Part shown: in pieces, positions 3,661 through 33,262 of the stretch | How the letters are laid out: each line of letters starts with the position of its first letter | Position numbering within the stretch: position 1 is the first letter of the stretch | DNA from: Candidatus Deferrimicrobiaceae bacterium | Lineage (GTDB): Bacteria; Desulfobacterota; Deferrimicrobia; Deferrimicrobiales; Deferrimicrobiaceae | Assembly: GCA_963792415.1 (NCBI GenBank) | Contig: CAWBVY010000004.1 | Location: 160,001-224,000, forward strand | Direction: 5' to 3' | DNA: 64,000 nt | The notes under the pieces: model-generated | Databases searched by the model: none | Told to the model about the DNA's origin: nothing | Seen by the model: the letters and a program-made list of their open reading frames with translations, nothing else | Made by a program: the position numbers and the translations under genes

Positions 3661-4832
3661 GGGCGCGCCTCCCGCGCGTGGAACCGCTCCACCTGCCGGA
3701 GGACCCGGTCCCGGATCGCCCGGGGAGAAGAAGGAGTCTCCACCGGACGTCCGGCGCGCAGCGCAGGCCGCAACAGGGCCTCCCGGGCACCGCCGCAGGG
3801 GCAGCGCCCCGGCGGGTCCGCGGCGGGGCGGACCGTCCGGGCACCGCACGCCTCGCACGCGTGCACCTGCTTGCGGCCGGACCGCTTCCCCCGCTTCGCG
3901 AAAGGGACGCCCTCCACTTCCACGATGTCGAGCGCGTAGTCGATCGTGGGCGCGTTGCTCAGGGAGGTCCCGACGCCGAAGCCGTCCGCCGCGTCGCGAA
4001 GCGCCCGCACCTCCTCCTCTCCCAGCCCGCCGGAGGCGATCAGGCGCACGTGCCGGAAGCCGCGCAGATCCAGCTCCCACCGCACCTCCTGGAGGATCCG
4101 CCGGAAATCGCCCCGGCGCGACCCCGGCGTGTCGAGCCGGACGGCGGACAACCGTTCCCGCAGCGCCTCGGCCACCCGCACCGCCTCGAACTTCTCGTCC
4201 TGGAGCGTGTCGACGAGGCAGACCCGTGGAACCGCCGGGTCCACCGCCGCGTCGAAGGCCCGCATCGCCGTCACCGTGTCTCCGAGGACCAGGACGAGCG
4301 CGTGCGGCATCGTCCCCTGCGGCGTCTCGCCGAGGAACGCGGCGCTGCGGATCGCCGAGACCCCGTCCGCGCCGCCGATGAAGGCGTTCCGGTCGATCAT
4401 CGTGGAGAGGGCCGGGTGCATCCTGCGGGCCCCGAAGCTCAGGACCGGCTTCTCCCCGGCCGCGTGCTTGACCCGCGACGCCGCCGTGGCGATCCCGGAC
4501 GCCTGGCAGACCGTCCCCAGCATCGCCGTCTCCAGCTCGCAGAAGGCGCCGTACGGCCCCTCGATGGAGAGGACGGTCTCGAAGGGGAAAAAGAGGCTCC
4601 CTTCCCCCATCCCCTCGACGTCGACATCGGCCCCAGCGAGCAGCGACAGCATCTCGTCCATCCCGGAGAGGACGGCATACCCGTAGCCGGTCGGGAACTT
4701 CTTGACGATCGCCTCGGCGGTCACACGCACGCGGTCCTTCCCGGTCGCGCGCAGCACCTCCATCGTCCGGCGGAAGTAGACGTCGGTCGTTTCCCCGCGG
4801 AGGATCTCGTCGCGGGTCGGGATGAGATCCAT
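3657..4832 (-). CDS. pncB: Nicotinate phosphoribosyltransferase
   Basis: TDVYF, SFGARRMHP, GTMPHAL, VRLDTP and FGVGT motifs; adjacent to the nicotinamidase gene. Confidence 0.88.
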   Translation of the reverse strand: MDLIPTRDEILRGETTDVYFRRTMEVLRATGKDRVRVTAEAIVKKFPTGYGYAVLSGMDEMLSLLAGADVDVEGMGEGSLFFPFETVLSIEGPYGAFCELETAMLGTVCQASGIATAASRVKHAAGEKPVLSFGARRMHPALSTMIDRNAFIGGADGVSAIRSAAFLGETPQGTMPHALVLVLGDTVTAMRAFDAAVDPAVPRVCLVDTLQDEKFEAVRVAEALRERLSAVRLDTPGSRRGDFRRILQEVRWELDLRGFRHVRLIASGGLGEEEVRALRDAADGFGVGTSLSNAPTIDYALDIVEVEGVPFAKRGKRSGRKQVHACEACGARTVRPAADPPGRCPCGGAREALLRPALRAGRPVETPSSPRAIRDRVLRQVERFHAREARP

Positions 4833-4855
4833 CGGAGCCTCCTTGATGGGGGGGA

Positions 4856-5425
4856 TCAACGGCGGGGGGCGGACCGAACCGGGCGGCGGACCACCCGGAC
4901 TCCCAGCACGCGCTCCATCTGATCGAGGGCGAACGCGTGCGCGTCGGGCGCAAGCCCCGCCACGAACCGCTCATCCACCGTCGCGTCGTAGCCGCGCATC
5001 GCGGCGTCGGCCGCCGTGTAGAGGATGCAGATGTTGGTGACGCAGCCGGCGAGCGTGAGGCTCCGGATCCCGTTTCGCCGGAGAATGAAGTGAAGCGGCG
5101 TGGCGTGGAACCCGGAATAGGTGCGCTTCTCCACCACCACGTCCCCCGGCTCCGGGGCGAGGGAGGGGACGACCCCCGCGCCGGAAGTACCTTCCACGGC
5201 GTGGGGCGGCCACCCCATCCGCGCGAATTCGGGATCGTTCTTCCTGTGGGAATCGCAGACGTACACGACGAGTTCCCCTTCCCGCCGCGCCTTCGCGATC
5301 CGGCGGCGCAGCGCAGGGAGAATCGCCCGCGTCCCCGGCACCTCCAGGGGGGCCCCGGGACGGACAAAGTCGTTCAGCATGTCGACGACGATCAGCGCCT
5401 TCTTCCCAGACGCCCCGGCCTTCAC
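4856..5425 (-). CDS. pncA: Nicotinamidase / isochorismatase-family cysteine hydrolase
   Basis: ALIVVDMLNDF, DSH, WPPHA, EKRTYSGF and GCVTNICI motifs; GTG start after GGAGG; lies upstream of pncB. Confidence 0.75.
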   Translation of the reverse strand: MKAGASGKKALIVVDMLNDFVRPGAPLEVPGTRAILPALRRRIAKARREGELVVYVCDSHRKNDPEFARMGWPPHAVEGTSGAGVVPSLAPEPGDVVVEKRTYSGFHATPLHFILRRNGIRSLTLAGCVTNICILYTAADAAMRGYDATVDERFVAGLAPDAHAFALDQMERVLGVRVVRRPVRSAPRR

Positions 5426-21182: not shown

Positions 21183-21201
21183 TCGGCCCCTACGGGGCCG
21201 A
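21183..21201 (-). promoter_or_regulatory. SECIS-like hairpin for the arsS UGA
   Basis: TCGGCCCC-GTA-GGGGCCGA, 12 nt 3' of the UGA at 21216..21214. It could also act as a terminator between convergent genes. Confidence 0.7.
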
Positions 21202-22206
21202 TATCGCTCCGCCTCAAGTGAAGCCGGATCCCGCCGTGCAGGCGTAACAGTACTCCCCGATCGCGATCGCGGCGCCGGGCGGAGGAAGTTCGTGCACCTC
21301 CGAGACGTGGACCTTCCGGTCTCCGTGGGGCCGTCCGACGGCCAGGTTGAAATCGCAATCGTACAGGAACCCGTCCCAGGATACGGAGAGGAGCGTTCGG
21401 CACATGAGCCGTTCCACCGCGGAGGGGTTGAAGCCATCCGCGAGCGTTTTCAGATACCGTTCGTGATTTCCCGTCCGCTGCAGCCACGTCCGGAAACGCC
21501 CAAGCGGTACGTTCGCGAACGTGTACAGGCGGTTGAACGCGATCCCCCATTTCCGGAGGAGGTCGGCCCGGAATTTCCGCTCGGCGGTCTCCTGGGAAAC
21601 GGGAAGGAACGCCCCGACAGGGTTGGAGACGAGGTCCAGCTCCAGTCCGGTCCCCTCCATTCCATATCCCGCGGCGTTCAACCTCTTCAGCGCGGCGATC
21701 GCGGCTTCCGTCACCCCCGCGCCACGCTGGGCATCGCCTTGGGACGGATTCGTCGAGGGGAAGGAGGCGACCAGGACGACGCGGTGGGCGGCGCAGAGCG
21801 CGAGAAGAGACTCTCTCCCGGCGCCGTTCAATGCGGAAAGGTTCGTCCGAAGCATCAGGCGGGGCGCAAGCGGGGCGAGTCCTTCGACGAGAAAAGGAAG
21901 GTCGGGCACCAGTTCCGGCGCTCCGCCGGTGATATCGATCGCCTGGAACGGGAACCGCCGGGCGAACGAGACGACCGCCGCCATCGTCTCCCGGGACATG
22001 ACCTCTTCCCTGTCCGGACCGGCCTCGAGGTGGCAATGCCGGCACCGGAGATTGCACAGGTACCCCGTGCTCACCTGGAGGGTATGGACGCGGTCCCGCC
22101 CGAGGGAGACTCCATGACGCGCGAGGGCGTCGGCGAACGGCTCGACCTCGGACGCCTCCCGGACGCCGGTCCCGATCCCCGTCGACATTTCCCCGATCCT
22201 CGCCAC
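21190..22206 (-). CDS. arsS: Arsenosugar-biosynthesis radical SAM selenoprotein ArsS (Sec at TGA 21216..21214)
   Basis: CNLRCRHC radical SAM motif, DITGGAPE, LMCRTLLSVSWDGFLYDCDFN. The C-terminus reads CTAGSGFT-TGA-GGAISAP-TAG, matching the family ending CTAGxGSSCGG with UGA at the Cys position. Confidence 0.88.
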
Positions 22207-22238
22207 GATCCCTTCCTCCAATTCGATTCCTTCCCCGT

Positions 22239-22571
22239 CTACATGGAAAGCTTTTCGGCGATCTTCCGCATCTGCACCCCGTGCACGAGGGATGCGCCGC
22301 CGCGGATCGCCGCCGCCACGTGAACCGCCTCGGTCATCTCGGCCAGGTTCGACCCTTTCTCGAGAGACGCCCGGGTGTACGCGTCGATGCAGTAGGGACA
22401 CTGGACCGCGTGCGCCACCGCGAGGGCGATCAGCGCCTTCTCCCGCTCCGTGAGTTCCCCCTCCTTGAAGACTTCGTCGTAGTAGTCGAAGAACTTCTTC
22501 GCGAGTTCCGGAGCGTCCTTACCGATATCGCCGAACGCGGCGAGACCGGCGGGATCGTAATACGTCTCCAT
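22239..22571 (-). CDS. AhpD/CMD-family peroxidase-like protein associated with ArsS
   Basis: EREKALIALAVAHAVQCPYCIDAY and EAVHVAAAIRGGASLVHG; immediately upstream of arsS. Confidence 0.88.
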   Translation of the reverse strand: METYYDPAGLAAFGDIGKDAPELAKKFFDYYDEVFKEGELTEREKALIALAVAHAVQCPYCIDAYTRASLEKGSNLAEMTEAVHVAAAIRGGASLVHGVQMRKIAEKLSM

Positions 22572-22647: not shown

Positions 22648-23643
22648 TCAGCCCGCCGGACAGGCCGCCCCGATGCTTTCCCCTTTCTTTTCCCCGGCCG
22701 TGCACAGGATGTCCTCGAGGCGCTTCCTTCCGGCGGGAGACAACCCCAGTCCGTCGAGCTCCCGCCGAAGGGAGTCGCACGTCCCGTTTCCGGCAACGTA
22801 CCCATTGACGCGGGTGACGGCGGTGGAGGCGAGGAAATCGCGGAACGACGGGTACATCGCCTCGTACTCCTTCATCAGTTCCGACCGGCCCCGGAGCATA
22901 TACTTCTGGTGATACTCCTCGGCCAGGTAGAACCTGGTGGCCGGCCGGATCTCCGTGTAGATCCTTCCCTTCCTCCGGGAGGCCTCGCGGCTCCTGGTCT
23001 CGATCGCCACGGTTTTCTGTTCAACGCCATGGGTAAAGATCGCGGACATGTACTGCCGCCTCCACGGACGTTCCCGCGGGTCATGGCTTGCCCAGAAGAC
23101 GTCGAGCAATGTCCCGTAGGAGATCACGGACGGATCGAAGTCGACCTCGACCGTCTCGATATGGTCCCCGAGGTTCTGATACGTGGGGTTCTCCGTCGAC
23201 CCCCCCGTGTATCCGACGCGGGTGCGGAGAACGCCGGCGAGACTCCCGAACCGGGAGTCGGGACCCCAGAATCAGCCCAGGGCGAAGGTCGCCGTCTCCG
23301 TGACTTTGGGCGGGGATGCATCGATCGGCGGCGTTGCCGTCCCCCGATAGGTTCCCGCCCGTGTCAGCGCTTCCACCATCTTTGCCACCGTGATCTCCGC
23401 GGGGTAGAAGGTAACCGTGTTGATCTCCCTCGGGCCGCGGAAGCCTTTCTCGACTTTTTTCACGCCGTGCAGCCCCTCCAGGGCCGCTTTCCCCACGTCG
23501 TATCAGGCCACGTAGAACGTGACCGTGGAGGTTCCCTTCCCTTGGGATGGCGGGTCGTCGGCCCCCCATGATGCCGATAAGGAGAAAAGGACAAGGAGCA
23601 GGAAGAACGGCAGGATGCGTCGAAATTTCGCTGATGAATCCAT
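22648..23643 (-). CDS. msrA: Exported two-selenocysteine protein: signal peptide, HMA-like Sec domain and Sec methionine sulfoxide reductase A
   Basis: ORF fragments ending at 23503, 23272 and 22648 are in one frame, joined by TGA at 23505..23503 (TFYVA-U-YDVG) and TGA at 23274..23272 (FALG-U-FWG, the MsrA GCFWG motif); GYTGG, PTY, HIETVEV and AEEYHQKY follow; GGAGG RBS before ATG 23643. Confidence 0.85.
23241..23259 (-). promoter_or_regulatory. SECIS-like hairpin for the MsrA catalytic UGA
   Basis: GACTCCCG-GTT-CGGGAGTC, perfect 8-bp stem, 12 nt after the UGA. Confidence 0.8.
23469..23487 (-). promoter_or_regulatory. SECIS-like hairpin for the N-terminal domain UGA
   Basis: GCGGCCCT-GGA-GGGGCTGC, 8 bp with 2 G-U pairs, 15 nt after the UGA. 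Confidence 0.7.
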
Positions 23644-23687
23644 CGGCACTCCCTCCGCGGCACATGGCCGTTTTCTCATGCACATTT

Positions 23688-23743: not shown

Positions 23744-24388
23744 TCACCCGCCCGCGATTTTCCGGATCGCGGCCACGATCTCCGCCGGCTCCATGCGCAC
23801 GGTGTAGTCCGGGTCCGCCTCCCCCGCCCGGACGATGCCGTCCCTGTCCAGAACGTAGGTCGCCGGAACGGGAAGCTCCCACCGGCCCGCGCCGTTGTAC
23901 TTCTCAAGATTGACCCCGAACTTCTCCAGGTACAACGTCTTGACCTCCCCGGGCACGGCGTACCAGAGGCGATACTTCTTGAGCGTCTCGCTCGTCGCGT
24001 CGCTGAGGATGTCGATGGGGATCGCGTGCTTCTCCGCCATCGTCAGCGTGTTGTCGGGAAGTTCCGGGCTGATACCCACCAGGTCCGCGCCGAGCGACCG
24101 GATCGTCTGCAATTCCTTCGCCAGAGCTGCCAGCTCCAGGTTGCAGTACGGTCACCAGACCCCGCGGTAGAAGTTGAGTACCACCGGGCCCCGGGACAAC
24201 CGTTCCGAAAGCCTCACCGTCTCGCCCCGCTGGTTCGGCAGGGCGAAGTCCGGCGCGCGCTCCCCGATCCGCAGTCCGGCGGCTCCCGATTCCCTCGTGG
24301 AGTCGATCCCCCGGCGGAGGATCGCCACGACCTCCGGCGGCCGGTTCCGGGACGCGTCGAATTCCGCAAGCTCCTTCTTCAGCGACAT
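23744..24388 (-). CDS. Peroxiredoxin-like (AhpC/TSA family) selenoprotein with a UxxC motif
   Basis: GERAPDFALPNQRGE...FYRGVW-TGA-PYCNLEL (family motif FYRGxWCPYCNLEL); TGA 24154..24152 is in frame with ORF 23744..24112 (WELPVPATYV). Confidence 0.9.
24121..24139 (-). promoter_or_regulatory. SECIS-like hairpin for the Prx-like UGA
   Basis: CTGGAGCT-GGC-AGCTCTGG, 12 nt after the UGA. Confidence 0.75.
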
Positions 24389-24408
24389 CTCCATTTCCCC
24401 CTTCCGCT

Positions 24409-24858
24409 CTATTCCAGAGCCTTTCCGGACATGGCGTCGAGCGCCTTTTCCAGCGCCGCGATCGCGTCGTCCTTCCCCCGGATCCCGTGCCGCTCCTTGA
24501 GCCAGGCCGCGGAATTGTAGCTGAGCCAGACCTTGCCCCCTGCGTCCTCCCAGGCCAGCGCCTTGAGCGGCAGGTCGATGGCCACGGTGGGCGCGGCGAC
24601 CATCAGCGGCGTTCCCCCCTTCGGGTTCCCGAAGATCAGGAGCTGGCTCGGCCGCATCTTGAGCCCGACTTTCTCCGCTTCGGCCGCGTGGTCGATCCGG
24701 GCGAAAACGGTCATCCCCTTGGATTGGAGGACGGCGACCAGCCGATCCATCGTCTCGGGAGCGGAATATCGGGAGGACTTCGAGATCAACCCGTTTTCCC
24801 CCGCGAACGCATTGACGGCAACCATGGCCAGCAATACAGCGATCCATGCTTTTCTCAT
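24409..24858 (-). CDS. Exported DUF302-domain protein
   Basis: Signal peptide; FARIDHAAEA, LIFGNPKGGTPLM and IDLPLKALAWED motifs. Confidence 0.85.
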   Translation of the reverse strand: MRKAWIAVLLAMVAVNAFAGENGLISKSSRYSAPETMDRLVAVLQSKGMTVFARIDHAAEAEKVGLKMRPSQLLIFGNPKGGTPLMVAAPTVAIDLPLKALAWEDAGGKVWLSYNSAAWLKERHGIRGKDDAIAALEKALDAMSGKALE

Positions 24859-24903
24859 CGTCCCCTCCTTGTCGTCGAATACCCAGGCTCCTCTATTCCC
24901 GTC

Positions 24904-25614
24904 TCATTCCAGACTCCCGTTGGAAGAGAGGGGTTTCACCTTCCGGCGGTTCTTCACGGCGTTGAGAATCGTGGGCAGGAGGGCGAACAGCCCCAGCAGG
25001 GCGAACGACCCCAGAACCCGCGGGCTTGCCACCTGGCGCACGGTTTCAATGGCCGCGAGGCTCGCCCCCGCGTTCACGAAGACCAGGCTCCCCGGCATGA
25101 TCCCGAACAGCGTCCCCAGGGCGTAGGTCCGAAGCGGCAATCCCGTGACACCGCACGCCAGGTTGACCAGGAAGAACGGGAACGCCGGGACCAGCCGCAG
25201 GAAGAGGAGGTAGGAGAGCCCGTTCTCCCGCAACCCCCGGTCGATCCCCTCCATCCGCCCGCCGAACTTCCTCACCACCCAGTCCCGCAGCAGCGTGCGG
25301 CTGACGAGGAAAGCGAGGATGGCCCCGACGGTGGCGCCCGACACCACGAACAGCGTCCCCTGGAGAACGCCGAAAATCGCTCCGGCGGCGAGAGACAGGA
25401 TGGCCGCCCCCGGGAGGGAGAACGCGGTCTGGACGATGTAGAGCAGAACGAAGACGGCGGCGAACAGAACGGCGTGCGCGGCGCGCAGATCCGAAAGGCG
25501 CGCCTTGTTCGCCTTCAGGCTTTCCAGCGTCAGGTACTTCCCAAGGTCGAGGAAGTAGAACGCGGCCACGACCCCCGCGAATACGAGGAGGATCAGGATC
25601 TTCCGGGTCTTCAT
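24904..25614 (-). CDS. TVP38/TMEM64 (DedA/VTT superfamily) membrane protein
   Basis: SLPGAAILSLAAGAIFG, LRLVPAFPFFLVN and GIMPGSLVFVNAG motifs; ATGA overlap with the upstream oxidoreductase. Confidence 0.88.
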   Translation of the reverse strand: MKTRKILILLVFAGVVAAFYFLDLGKYLTLESLKANKARLSDLRAAHAVLFAAVFVLLYIVQTAFSLPGAAILSLAAGAIFGVLQGTLFVVSGATVGAILAFLVSRTLLRDWVVRKFGGRMEGIDRGLRENGLSYLLFLRLVPAFPFFLVNLACGVTGLPLRTYALGTLFGIMPGSLVFVNAGASLAAIETVRQVASPRVLGSFALLGLFALLPTILNAVKNRRKVKPLSSNGSLE

Positions 25615-27086
25615 CCGGACACCTCTTCCTCCGGCGTGCACGCCCTCCCCTTCAGGTCGAAGAGGAATCGCAGGATCTTCTTCGTCCGGTCGCCGAACAG
25701 CTTCTCGGAGTAGTACGACCCGGCGGCCTTCTTCGAGATCTCCGCGAGCGTCGGGTAGGCGTGGATCGCCCCGGCCATGGTGGAGAGCTTCACCCCGCCG
25801 TTGATCGCGGCGACCCATTCGTGGATCAGTTCGCCGGCATGGGGCCCGGCGATCTGGCAGCCAAGGAGCGCCCCGGACGGGCTGATCAGCACCTTGATCT
25901 TTCCTTCGGTCTCCCCTTCGGCGAGGGCGCGATCCACGTCGCGAAACGCCGCCTCGAGGATCCGGTATTCCACTCCCGCCGCCTTCGCCCGCTTCTCGTT
26001 CAGCCCCACGCTCGCCACCTCGGGATCGGTGTACGTGCACCACGGGACCTTCGCGTAGTCCGCTTTCCTCGGCAACCGGAGCACCGCGTTCGACAGGGCG
26101 ATCCCCGCCTCGTACCCCGCCACGTGGGTGAACGGGAAGACGCCGTTCACGTCGCCGCACGAATAGATGTGCGGAACGTTCGTCCGCATCCGCCGGTCGG
26201 CCGGAACCCCTCGCGGAGAGAACCCGACGCCCGCCGCGGACAACTCCAGCCCCTCGACGTTCGGTTTCCGTCCGGCCGCCACGAGAAGGACATCCCCTTC
26301 GACTGTCCACGCCTCCCCTTCTCCCTTCGCGGGCCCCACCCGCAGTTGCACCGACCCGTTCCCCATGGTCGCCTTGAGGGCTTTCGTGCCGGTGAGGACC
26401 TTCACCCCTTCCGCTTCGAGCCGGTTTCTCAGGATCAAGGCGATGTCCGGGTCCTCGGGACCCAGAACCTGGTCCCCGTATTCGATGAGGGTGACTCCCG
26501 ACCCGAGACGCCGGAACGCCTGCGCCATCTCCACACCGATCGGCCCGCCGCCGAGGATCAGCAGGTGTCCCGGCAGCTCCGTCTGGGAGAAGACCGTCTC
26601 GTTCGTCCAGTACGGGACGTCGGCGATCCCTTCCACGGGCGGCAGGGACGGGCTCGAGCCGGTGGCGATGATCCACGCCCTCGCAGTGAGGCGCGCCCCG
26701 TCGAGGTCGACCGTATGGTCGTCGACGAAGCGCGGGGATCCGAACCGGACTTCCGCGCCGAGCTTGCAGAACCGCTCCGGCGAGTCGTGCTCCTGGATCG
26801 TGTCGATCACCGAGCGGACCCGGCCCATGACGGCGGCGAGGGAGACCGGCGGGAGCGCCACCTCCGGAAGCCCGAACTCCTTCGCGCGGCGGGCGAGGGA
26901 CCAGACCCCGGCCGTCCGGATCAATGTCTTCGATGGGACGCACCCGAAGTGGAGGCAGTCTCCTCCGAGTTTTTTCGCCTTTTCGACGAGGATCGTCTTC
27001 GCGCCGAACTGGGCCGAACCTGCCGCCGCCGTCAACCCTGCCGCTCCCCCTCCAAGGATCCCAAGATCGTAATCAAACGCCGCCAT
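25611..27086 (-). CDS. Class I pyridine nucleotide-disulfide oxidoreductase (MerA/Lpd-like, not true MerA)
   Basis: GGGAAG FAD motif, GGDCLHFGCVPSK redox pair, GGGPIG and HAYPT; no C-terminal CC pair. Confidence 0.88.
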   Translation of the reverse strand: MAAFDYDLGILGGGAAGLTAAAGSAQFGAKTILVEKAKKLGGDCLHFGCVPSKTLIRTAGVWSLARRAKEFGLPEVALPPVSLAAVMGRVRSVIDTIQEHDSPERFCKLGAEVRFGSPRFVDDHTVDLDGARLTARAWIIATGSSPSLPPVEGIADVPYWTNETVFSQTELPGHLLILGGGPIGVEMAQAFRRLGSGVTLIEYGDQVLGPEDPDIALILRNRLEAEGVKVLTGTKALKATMGNGSVQLRVGPAKGEGEAWTVEGDVLLVAAGRKPNVEGLELSAAGVGFSPRGVPADRRMRTNVPHIYSCGDVNGVFPFTHVAGYEAGIALSNAVLRLPRKADYAKVPWCTYTDPEVASVGLNEKRAKAAGVEYRILEAAFRDVDRALAEGETEGKIKVLISPSGALLGCQIAGPHAGELIHEWVAAINGGVKLSTMAGAIHAYPTLAEISKKAAGSYYSEKLFGDRTKKILRFLFDLKGRACTPEEEVSG

Positions 27087-31928: not shown

Positions 31929-31940
31929 AATGTTTCCCCG

Positions 31941-31966
31941 TGTAAGGAATCTCCCCGGGTCACGAC
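31941..31966 (+). promoter_or_regulatory. Putative ECF promoter TGTAAG-N16-CGAC upstream of msrB-msrA
   Basis: TGTAAG GAATCTCCCCGGGTCA CGAC. Confidence 0.7.
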
Positions 31967-32022
31967 CAACCGGCATCGAGGGGGCAAACAATGCATCTAA
32001 TACGAAACAGGAGGGACGCAGC

Positions 32023-32622
32023 ATGCGATCCAGGACGAACCGCAGGGATTTTCTTCGGCTGATGGGTGCGGCGGCCGGTGTCGCGGTGGGCGCGACGCTA
32101 CCCGCGATCCTCGGCGGCCGGCTCACCGGATCGGGCGGTTTCACCGATACGGCGCGAGCTGCCGAGCGATCCGCGCCGCGTTCGATCCGGGTGTATTCCG
32201 TCGAAAAGGGGAGCTACGTCATGACCCAGACCGTTGTGAAAACGAACGAAGAGTGGAAAAAAATCCTGACGCCCGAGCAGTACCACATCCTGCGGGAGAA
32301 GGGGACGGAGCGGGCTTTCACCGGCAAGTACGACAAGAATCATGAGCACGGAATCTACCGCTGCGCCGGCTGCGAGCTCGAGCTGTACCGTTCGGAAGAG
32401 AAGTACGACTCCAGGACCGGCTGGCCGAGCTTCACGGCGCCGATCGCGCCGGAGAACGTAAGCACCCGGCCCGACAACAGCCTCTTTTCCCGGCGCACCG
32501 AAGTGGTTTGCCCCCGGTGCGACGGACACCTCGGCCACGTGTTCGACGACGGGCCGAAGCCGACCGGAAAGCGATACTGCATGAACTCGGCGGCCCTGCA
32601 GTTCGTCGCCACCGCAAAATAG
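32023..32622 (+). CDS. msrB: Peptide methionine (R)-S-oxide reductase with Tat signal
   Basis: NRRDFLR twin-arginine motif; GTERAFTG, CAGC, GWPSF, CPRC, GHLGHVFDDGP and RYCMNS. Confidence 0.95.
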   Translation: MRSRTNRRDFLRLMGAAAGVAVGATLPAILGGRLTGSGGFTDTARAAERSAPRSIRVYSVEKGSYVMTQTVVKTNEEWKKILTPEQYHILREKGTERAFTGKYDKNHEHGIYRCAGCELELYRSEEKYDSRTGWPSFTAPIAPENVSTRPDNSLFSRRTEVVCPRCDGHLGHVFDDGPKPTGKRYCMNSAALQFVATAK

Positions 32623-32647
32623 ACCGGTCCTCGGGGAGGGGGCTCTT

Positions 32648-33262
32648 ATGAAAACGTTGCTCTTCGGATTGTTTGCGCTTCCCTTGATGCTCGTCGCCGC
32701 CGGTACGGTCAACGCCGCCGCCACCCTCGAAAAAGCGACCTTCGCCGGGGGCTGTTTCTGGTGCATGGAGCACCCGTTCGACGCGTTGCCGGGAGTGGTG
32801 TCGGTCACGTCCGGCTACACGGGAGGGCAGAAGGTGAATCCCACCTATAAAGAGGTCTCGGCCGGCGGGACCGGCCACGCGGAGGCGGTGCAGATCGTCT
32901 ACGACCCTTCGAAGATCCATTACGGGAAGCTTCTCGACGTCTTCTGGCACAACATCGATCCGACCACGGTGGACCGCCAGTTCTGCGATTCCGGCAACCA
33001 GTACCGGTCGGCGATTTTCTACCACACGGAGGAACAGCACAAGGAGGCGTTGCAGTCGAAGGCGGCGCTGGAGAAGTCGAAGCCCTTCAGGGAGCCGGTG
33101 GTCACCGAAATCGTCCCCGCCGGCGAATACTATGCGGCGGAGGAGTACCACCAGCAATACTACAAGAAGAACCCGATCCGGTACCGGTATTACAGGAGCG
33201 GATGCGGCCGGGACCGGAGGCTCAAGGAACTGTGGGGGAGCGCGACCGGAGGGGAAAAGTAG
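32648..33262 (+). CDS. msrA: Peptide methionine (S)-S-oxide reductase, Cys form, with signal peptide
   Basis: FAGGCFWCME, SGYTGG, GHAEAVQ, QFCD and AEEYHQQYY motifs. Confidence 0.95.
   Translation: MKTLLFGLFALPLMLVAAGTVNAAATLEKATFAGGCFWCMEHPFDALPGVVSVTSGYTGGQKVNPTYKEVSAGGTGHAEAVQIVYDPSKIHYGKLLDVFWHNIDPTTVDRQFCDSGNQYRSAIFYHTEEQHKEALQSKAALEKSKPFREPVVTEIVPAGEYYAAEEYHQQYYKKNPIRYRYYRSGCGRDRRLKELWGSATGGEK

Follow-up and report, generated by a model that had tools for sequence, protein, structure and literature searches.

The stretch analysed here, referred to below as the window, comprises 64,000 nucleotides of contig CAWBVY010000004.1 (positions 160,001 to 224,000) from a Candidatus Deferrimicrobiaceae bacterium, and the gene in question occupies 22648..23643 on its minus strand. 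Under translation table 11 this frame splits into open reading frame (ORF) fragments, for example 23272..23496 and 22648..23127, none of which has both a start codon and the nucleophile of the methionine sulfoxide reductase MsrA. Read on the minus strand of the window, 23643 to 22651 is a run of 331 codons free of TAA and TAG; TGA stands in frame as codon 47 (23503-23505) and again as codon 124 (23272-23274), and a further TGA at 22648-22650 ends the frame. A first-pass annotation of this DNA had joined the fragments into one exported protein with two selenocysteine (Sec) residues, and this proposal was borne out: MDSSAKFRRILPFFLLLVLFSLSASWG, VTFYVA-U-YDVGK, a proline-rich linker and GUFWG were all found in the translated 331-codon frame together with both TGAs, and in the window genome the domains follow one another without an intervening stop, ribosome-binding site and start. 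It is almost certain that this is a real read-through gene, encoding an exported two-selenocysteine protein that consists of a signal peptide, a 65-aa ferredoxin-like Sec domain (the N-domain), a proline-rich tether, and a Sec-MsrA with putative helical domain of the type found in Clostridium oremlandii (CoMsrA). Its features are as follows.

22648..23643 (-): whole coding sequence, 331 codons and TGA stop, with signal peptide, Sec domain, linker and Sec-MsrA; from translation, and orthologues with an equal frame and both TGAs.
23649..23656 (-): Shine-Dalgarno-like GGAGGGAG, with the ATG (23641-23643) 5 nt downstream; read from the sequence.
23563..23643 (-): signal peptide, codons 1-27, with basic n-region, hydrophobic core and SAS/WG-A; from translation.
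23338..23529 (-): N-domain, codons 39-102, beta-alpha-beta-beta-alpha-beta, a member of the exported C/U-YDVGK family.
23503..23505 (-): UGA1, Sec47; TGA in relatives and Cys in homologues at the same column.
23469..23487 (-): hairpin 1, resembling a selenocysteine insertion sequence (SECIS), +19..+37 from UGA1 and overlapping the A-A-L-E-G-L codons; from folding and comparison.
23296..23337 (-): proline-rich linker, codons 103-116 (GTATPPIDASPPKV); from translation and relatives.
23272..23274 (-): UGA2, Sec124, the catalytic residue in GUFWG; from translation, alignment to CoMsrA and relatives.
23241..23259 (-): SECIS-like hairpin 2 (GACUCCCG-GUU-CGGGAGUC), +16..+34 from UGA2; from folding and comparison.
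22888..23295 (-): MsrA catalytic domain, codons 117-252, with Glu163 at the place of the CoMsrA proton donor Glu55; from PF01625, TIGR00401 and 4lwj.
22651..22887 (-): putative C-terminal helical domain and tail with three Cys (C288, C313, C327); from PF20939 and alignment to CoMsrA.

The window genome (G000; 2.84 Mb in 11 contigs) encodes Sec machinery with every component over its curated cut-off (selA 555 bits, selB 324, selD 317 and tRNA-Sec 74), and its selD (G000:C4:526405-527208) has an in-frame TGA and so is itself a selenoprotein gene. In an orthologue search covering 41 genomes, G000 and 40 relatives, the full-length frame with both TGAs was recovered from G012 and G011 and a contig-cut copy from G018; all three retain the two TGAs as well as the two hairpins. 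The RR of the signal peptide is not conserved in G012 and G011, which suggests export by a signal of the general secretory (Sec-type) pathway. The UGA1 column holds TGA in 16/16 loci examined in the phylum and the UGA2 column in 12/12 loci of relatives. Ratios of non-synonymous to synonymous substitution (dN/dS) are below 1 in all mature segments across six pairwise comparisons, with small site counts, and range from 0.21-0.66 in the 19 codons before UGA1 through 0.18-0.83 between the UGAs to 0.18-0.30 after UGA2. The segment upstream of UGA1, the conservation of which the first-pass annotation had presupposed, is conserved both in the orthologue alignment and in its dN/dS below 1.

The downstream hairpin previously assigned to each UGA could be located in both cases, and both hairpins are conserved among sister species. 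The stem of hairpin 1, GCGGCCC(U)/(G)GGGCUGC, spans +19..+37 downstream of UGA1; that of hairpin 2, GACUCCCG/CGGGAGUC, spans +16..+34 downstream of UGA2. For DNA this rich in GC, folding energies of the whole 66 nt do not stand out against shuffles (z -2.3 for UGA1 and +0.2 for UGA2), and as such the support for the hairpins is comparative. Across 78 distinct relatives of the selenocysteine type, 91.5% of the cells of the UGA1 helix are paired, as against 36-57% in slid controls; since the search pattern itself dictated the inner three pairs, only the outer five are informative. Pair 19-37 alternates between G-C (27) and U-A (20). In loci L090-L169 this pair is also mirrored in the encoded amino acids: where Ser (UCN) occupies K-x-A the next codon begins with A (K/T/N), and where Ala (GCN) occupies it the next codon begins with C (H/P/Q), a covariation apparently driven by RNA pairing. 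The UGA2 hairpin has a conserved 8-bp stem, with one compensatory change from U-A to G-C in L028. In database homologues of the N-domain, Trp at the Sec column was taken as TGA read as Trp in gene calls; the hairpin core A-L-E-G is present in 13/25 of these W forms versus 1/38 Cys forms, in a comparison with kinship uncontrolled.

A sceptical view would be that this is not one protein, that UGA1 or UGA2 terminates translation, and that the pieces belong to a decayed or mis-assembled gene. It could appeal to a frame that is broken under table 11, to public gene calls that consist only of fragments of 55, 74 and 182-194 aa, and to the unremarkable hairpin energies. We regard it as extremely improbable in view of the equal frame with both TGAs in G012, G011 and G018, purifying selection on all segments, Cys at both UGA columns in homologues, and conserved hairpins in a genome with full Sec machinery; moreover, no other ORF could supply the catalytic residue. 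Contigs from four metatranscriptome libraries of four studies, 90-99% alike, cover most of the gene, with two spanning UGA2 and none bridging UGA1 by 31 nt; these contigs cannot prove transcription and were given no weight.

The MsrA half matches PF01625 (PMSR) of Pfam over residues 117-252 with 144.7 bits against a cut-off of 23.7, and TIGR00401 (msrA) of NCBIfam with 128.2 bits against 108.1. The helical domain PF20939 scores 21.4 bits, just under its cut-off of 23.7, and the phmmer alignment spans CoMsrA residues 144-194. The closest solved protein in a phmmer search of the PDB is 4lwj, the selenoprotein MsrA of C. oremlandii (E 7e-58, residues 117-302), in which alignment both nucleophile and Glu are in place, with GUFWG at residues 123-127 and Glu163 opposite CoMsrA residue 55. 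According to the passages available from PMC4479559, native CoMsrA carries Sec, Glu55 is its proton donor, and during turnover the enzyme forms a dimer from the catalytic Cys16 to Cys16' and is regenerated by glutaredoxin (Grx). The window protein is like CoMsrA (Clostridium (Alkaliphilus) oremlandii, PDB 4lwj and related entries) in its FALG-U/C-FWGPD active site, its catalytic Glu and, putatively, its C-terminal helical domain. In contrast to CoMsrA, a cytoplasmic enzyme with a single Cys/Sec that is regenerated by a separate (seleno)glutaredoxin, it is exported, has a Cys-bearing C-terminal tail, and carries a second Sec on an N-terminal domain. A 'tandem use of selenocysteine', in which a Sec-MsrA is served by a Sec-glutaredoxin as second selenoprotein, was reportedly described by Kim et al. 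in 2011. That pair comprises two separate cytoplasmic proteins and employs the Grx fold, whereas the window gene encodes one exported polypeptide with a fold akin to heavy-metal-associated (HMA) domains and to half of MsrA.

The N-domain belongs to a family that can be recognised by a signal peptide, a domain of about 70 aa and the C/U-YDVGK motif, all of which are present in the window protein. A full HMMER scan of 1.84 billion representatives with residues 28-109 as query recovered 105 representative clusters at E<=1e-3, of which 41 also pass E<=1e-10, with the consensus F.V.[C/U]YDVGK.AL.GL.GV..V..G....E.N.V.YDP..I....ME.ALK.AGTY. Nearly all members are proteins of about 100 aa made up of a signal peptide and the N-domain alone, and some twenty further matches begin directly past the Sec column, as expected of gene calls truncated by TGA. 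In 66 aligned homologues the Sec column holds C in 38, W in 25 and another residue in 3. Cys or UGA had been predicted at this column, and C or W accordingly occupies it in 63/66 database homologues.

Residues 28-109 match no Pfam family at E<=10, the HMA family PF00403 included. The two best library matches are NF041115 (UxxU_metal_bind; 33.4 bits against a cut-off of 95, E 3.7e-8) and NF041383 (VPGUxxT type 2; 31 bits against 275, E 2.1e-7), both listed as selenoprotein families in the parts of PMC13188914 available, and the MerP model TIGR02052 gives 14.6 bits against 92.55. At E<=1e-3, NF041383 is matched by 64/67 family members and NF041115 by 43/67, and the part of NF041383 matched by the family is the part that also matches MsrA N-termini. 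NF041115 is defined by a UxxU motif and by a model score that the window domain, with its single Sec in U-Y-D-V, does not reach; a CxxC or UxxU loop is absent from the N-domain, and the family has a single conserved Cys/Sec column. A search for NF041383 members in 301 genomes of the phylum gave no match, with a control that also matched nowhere. Seleno_TsoY (NF047643, with a 'UxxV' motif and a model of 366 positions) was considered and set aside, as it gave no genome match at E<=1.

AlphaFold2, from a 67-row alignment, predicts a beta-alpha-beta-beta-alpha-beta fold with a confidence (pLDDT) of 88 and places the Sec just before helix 1; the top Foldseek match is MerP (E 3e-4, 32-33% identity). 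With hhalign, the family aligns to the N-terminal half of MsrA at 95.1% (E 3e-8, 63 columns), with the nucleophile (Cys/Sec) columns superposed, and to the HMA domains of the window genome at 85.8% (E 5e-6, 44 columns), the Cys loop not included. A profile search of the PDB with the family returned both MerP (8.9e-5) and MsrA (1e-3). Judged from sequence, the spacing between Glu46 and the D/Y-P motif appears equal to that of the catalytic Glu163. The resemblance to HMA domains proposed in the first-pass annotation thus stands for the fold and falls for sequence membership: 'HMA-like' is right for the former and wrong for the latter. Unlike MerP and HMA domains (PF00403, TIGR02052), the N-domain has no CxxC, lies under every sequence cut-off, has conserved polar residues where these have a metal loop, and occurs in Msr rather than mer or cop context. 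It looks like a bridge between the HMA and MsrA cores. Gene callers cut at TGA, and the family is at present invisible in databases, where it appears as fragments of 55 or 74 aa without a Pfam domain, named 'hypothetical protein' or, by the Joint Genome Institute (JGI), 'copper chaperone CopZ'. ESM Atlas neighbours of the N-domain are unnamed clusters. In one database protein of 575 aa (P0197), without a meaningful Pfam family, eight stretches match the second half of the N-domain (query residues 48-78), and it may be a repeat protein made of the N-domain module.

The genomic context of the family was surveyed with a TGA-containing DNA pattern, U-Y-D-V-G-K-x-A-L-E-G, in a species-representative collection, where 101 stretches gave 80 loci; these are Sec forms chosen by motif, among which kin share synteny. 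By a hand count of the 80 labels, about 55 are of the Deltaproteobacteria/Desulfobacterota type, 11 of the Nitrospirota type and 4 from Deferrimicrobium/Deferrimicrobiaceae, the rest being other. MsrA and/or MsrB lies within 1.2 kb at 57/80 loci, on the same strand in all neighbour calls but one, and Msr or a sulfite-oxidase-family molybdoenzyme at 65/80. Among the 15/80 with neither, one has an Msr at 1.6-2.1 kb and four have less than 400 nt of room upstream or less than 120 nt downstream. MsrB is upstream at 38 loci and downstream at 11, MsrA upstream at 30 and downstream at 12, and the typical operon is MsrA, MsrB and the small domain gene. Export appears common to the partners: an N-terminal hydrophobic segment is found in the small domain genes at 77/80 loci and a hydrophobic leader in 34/35 of the neighbouring MsrA N-termini examined, which are of the GCFWC Cys type in 35/35. 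In an independent sample from the phylum, 7/14 stand-alone loci have Msr or molybdoenzyme neighbours. Clustering of ORFs within 3 kb returned histidine kinases at 43 loci, OmpR-type regulators at 25, molybdenum enzymes at 10, malate dehydrogenases at 7 and FAD oxidoreductases at 7; further recurrent unnamed clusters at the loci gave no Pfam families and resemble antisense shadows. A heavy-metal-specific two-component system was considered for the kinases and regulators, which were typed as generic OmpR/BaeS-like.

Fusion to MsrA is real, as first proposed; it is, however, local to one genus, the general rule being a separate small gene, most often with Sec, by exported MsrA/MsrB or a molybdoenzyme. 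The fused form is found in G000, G012, G011 and G018. In G005 (L022) and G014 (L023) the same signal peptide leads straight onto PPIDA-MsrA, with a 69-codon in-frame absence; PPIDA precedes MsrA in these N-domain-less relatives as well. G021 and G020 have a split form of two adjacent genes, in which a TGA closes the small protein after GTAN/GTAD and the MsrA has its own membrane anchor, and G002 has the anchored MsrA alone, the domain not being found. One RNA-library contig skips 23335-23541 (207 nt) and represents the N-domain-less form. The N-domain is a captured copy of the small exported protein, and the fusion probably arose from an adjacent gene pair inside one genus; in this unrooted comparison the split form likely came first, followed by fusion and later by loss. 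Only a single copy of the N-domain is present in the window genome. A second, independent fusion occurs in L139 at about 4100-4950 (+), where a twin-arginine signal, MsrB, a short linker and the Sec domain, joined in frame, are followed by a TGA end; this fusion lies behind a histidine kinase gene. Two loci from beyond the genus, L102 and L126, have the small Sec gene beside a CoMsrA-type MsrA 55-56% identical to that of the window; in L102 the small gene is flanked on the opposite side by a Cys-type MsrA. In L029 (G023:C103) the Sec-MsrA orthologue extends over two frames (matches to 33-166 and 206-332), either a frameshifted gene or an assembly error.

As to function, the first-pass annotation had put forward a built-in selenol reductant or an Hg/Cu scavenger. 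The gene context favours a link to Msr chemistry, with the direction of electron flow not fixed by it. We tentatively favour, at somewhat below an even chance, a role of the N-domain as a selenol redox partner in direct exchange with the catalytic Cys/Sec of the Msr. In the window protein, Sec124 would reduce Met-S-sulfoxide and become a selenenic acid, which would be attacked by the tethered Sec47, whose module is similar to the catalytic half of a second MsrA. The resulting inter-domain diselenide would protect the selenenic acid and pass oxidising equivalents to an external periplasmic reductant. Such a protein would be a one-polypeptide version of two CoMsrA behaviours, regeneration by a selenoprotein glutaredoxin and dimerisation via the catalytic residue. 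In the Trx-MsrA-MsrB proteins of the PilB type from Neisseria, an exported Msr is likewise joined to a small redox domain, here thioredoxin (Trx), and this partner is also encoded by a separate gene by msrAB in other species, as is the window domain. Unlike in PilB, the window partner does not have a thioredoxin fold, carries one Sec and not CxxC, and has no visible link to DsbD/CcdA. The selenol partner is preferred because the domain occurs in 1:1 fusions with MsrA as well as with MsrB, like Trx in PilB-type proteins, and because it mimics the catalytic half of MsrA. A further reason is that CoMsrA resolves its oxidised residue via a second catalytic residue or glutaredoxin (available passages of PMC4479559).

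Several observations weigh against a selenol partner. The N-domain has a single redox residue, and no gene for a local re-reductant recurs; in particular, no thioredoxin-fold or DsbD/CcdA-like gene recurs in the clustering within 3 kb on either side of the 80 loci. The MsrA that usually accompanies the domain (GCFWC) brings a resolving Cys of its own, and the three C-terminal Cys of the window MsrA are conserved in close relatives. Exported Sec-MsrA occurs without the domain in G005, G014 and G002, which makes the domain dispensable. Its fold is closest to the metal-binding MerP and HMA. A sulfite-oxidase-family molybdoenzyme lies within 1.2 kb at 9/80 loci, only 1 of them also with Msr, and no enzyme of this family is known to take electrons from thiols or selenols. 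Neither of the two Cys-type loci examined (G121 and G043) has an Msr or molybdoenzyme neighbour.

Electrons may instead flow the other way, the domain being a client with an exposed selenolate or Cys that traps periplasmic HOCl, H2O2 and chloramines and is re-reduced by the neighbouring S-oxide reductase. A comparable scavenger logic operates in MrpX-YedY1 of Azospira and in CusF-MsrP of E. coli, where a peptide or metallochaperone is kept reduced by MsrP. A shared substrate would account for interchangeable, unrelated partners (MsrA/MsrB at 57 loci, a molybdoenzyme at 9/80), and these are for this reason better explained by a scavenger than by a selenol partner. The OmpR-type two-component system in the cluster (kinase 43/80, regulator 25/80) would fit a stress-induced unit, Sec usage is high (TGA in 11/13 strong phylum matches), and the window cluster includes a peroxiredoxin (Prx)-like selenoprotein and an RclA/MerA-like FAD oxidoreductase. 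Nevertheless, we give a scavenger only a minor, if appreciable, likelihood. Sec oxidises to selenenic or seleninic acid and not to a sulfoxide, and no Msr is known to accept either acid; the N-domain is not Met-rich, and 1:1 covalent fusion is commoner for a redox partner. The neighbouring molybdoenzymes, moreover, match SorA/SoxC weakly and MsrP more weakly still (40-51 bits against a cut-off of 207). A MerP- or CopZ-like periplasmic binder of Hg, Cu or Ag, acting via its selenolate and possibly as a dimer or with Sec124, would agree with the fold and with the weak sequence matches to MerP, CopZ and UxxU_metal_bind, as well as with the JGI automatic name 'copper chaperone CopZ' on some fragments. 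It might protect exported Sec/Cys enzymes, or act as metal donor for a membrane transporter and for a MerA-like reductase in the cytoplasm; genes for a MerA-like FAD oxidoreductase and a VTT/DedA protein lie upstream of the two-Sec gene in the window, and among the 80 loci the oxidoreductase recurs within 5 kb of the small Sec gene at 9 and DedA at 5. We consider metal binding unlikely, however, as the domain lacks CxxC and UxxU, has Val at the second position and matches no HMA family of Pfam, and as the Tyr, Asp, Lys, Glu, Asn and Thr conserved in the family, which the predicted fold would place around the Sec, are not soft-metal ligands. Msr genes and not metal pumps dominate the neighbours, among which one P-type ATPase was seen, and the FAD oxidoreductase scores 343 bits against the MerA cut-off of 454. 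Even less probable, in our judgement, is a minimal reductase, a cut-down paralogue of the MsrA half with nucleophile and Glu that acts as a third activity on some other small S- or Se-oxide. The hhalign match to MsrA at 95.1% with aligned nucleophile columns, a nearly invariant Glu46 that seems in register with the catalytic Glu, and the typical operon of MsrA, MsrB and domain gene all accord with it; but the N-domain is without the Tyr loop and the entire second half of the MsrA domain, has no resolving residue, and has non-enzymatic HMA domains as its structural neighbours.

Sec-MsrA is already known, as are HMA-type selenoproteins such as NF041115 and others (in the parts of PMC13188914 available). 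The exported C/U-YDVGK family, encoded beside Msr repair enzymes in many anaerobic bacteria, seems to be an undescribed and unlisted selenoprotein family. No model in Pfam or NCBIfam covers it, and no such family appears in the available passages of PMC13188914, PMC12013277, PMC1976440 and the Haft preprint. The literature passages searched contained none on the family, its linkage to Msr or a two-Sec MsrA, and no paper combining 'selenoprotein', 'MsrA' and 'heavy metal-associated' was found. The small Sec/Cys gene sits with exported Msr in most of the 80 species-level genomes and is fused to Msr twice, and it is as such a definite candidate that can be put to the test, whether as partner, as reductant or as client, in periplasmic Met-sulfoxide repair. 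This bears on how exported MsrA and MsrB without a thioredoxin domain stay reduced, and the window gene adds a natural two-Sec protein. As a speculation that we hold to be rather doubtful, C/U-YDVGK proteins may form a widespread class of periplasmic selenoproteins, derived from the catalytic half of MsrA, that act as redox mediators of extracytoplasmic Met-sulfoxide repair in anaerobes. These selenol catalysts would dock pseudo-dimerically on MsrA or MsrB and couple Msr re-reduction to sulfide or other donors of low potential in the periplasm or the environment, with no thioredoxin or DsbD relay. If so, the two-Sec fusion would be the one-chain form of that relay.

The window has a second exported Msr pair, of the Cys type, at 31930-33262 (+), consisting of a twin-arginine translocation (Tat) type MsrB (RRDFLRLMGAAAG) followed by an MsrA (GCFWC) with a leader of the general secretory type. 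Relatives belonging to the same taxonomic family carry the order MsrB, MsrA and domain at this place; in the window the small Sec gene is absent after the pair, and the genome's only domain copy is the one on the Sec-MsrA. Upstream of the two-Sec gene, 24409-27086 (-) encodes the FAD oxidoreductase and the VTT/DedA membrane protein, together with a DUF302 protein that is exported. The FAD oxidoreductase resembles lipoamide dehydrogenase, MerA and RclA and lies under all cut-offs; no MerT was seen near it, and the mer context by which a MerP is recognised was not found. G257 and G249 likewise have both the FAD oxidoreductase and the DedA gene; G089 has the oxidoreductase only.

The gene immediately upstream, at 23744-24394 (-), is peroxiredoxin/redoxin-like, and its codon 81 (24152-24154) is an in-frame TGA within a W-U-P-Y-C motif; it has no obvious signal peptide and gives weak NCBIfam matches to thiol peroxidase (50 bits) and PrxU (32 bits). 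Directly downstream, 21190-22571 (-) encodes an AhpD-like protein, the TIGR04169 arsenosugar-associated peroxidase-like protein (196 bits against 120), and the radical SAM protein ArsS (TIGR04167, 362 bits against 300), the latter with an in-frame TGA at codon 396 (21214-21216). The two-Sec gene, the Prx-like gene and the ArsS gene together place three selenoprotein genes within 3.2 kb.

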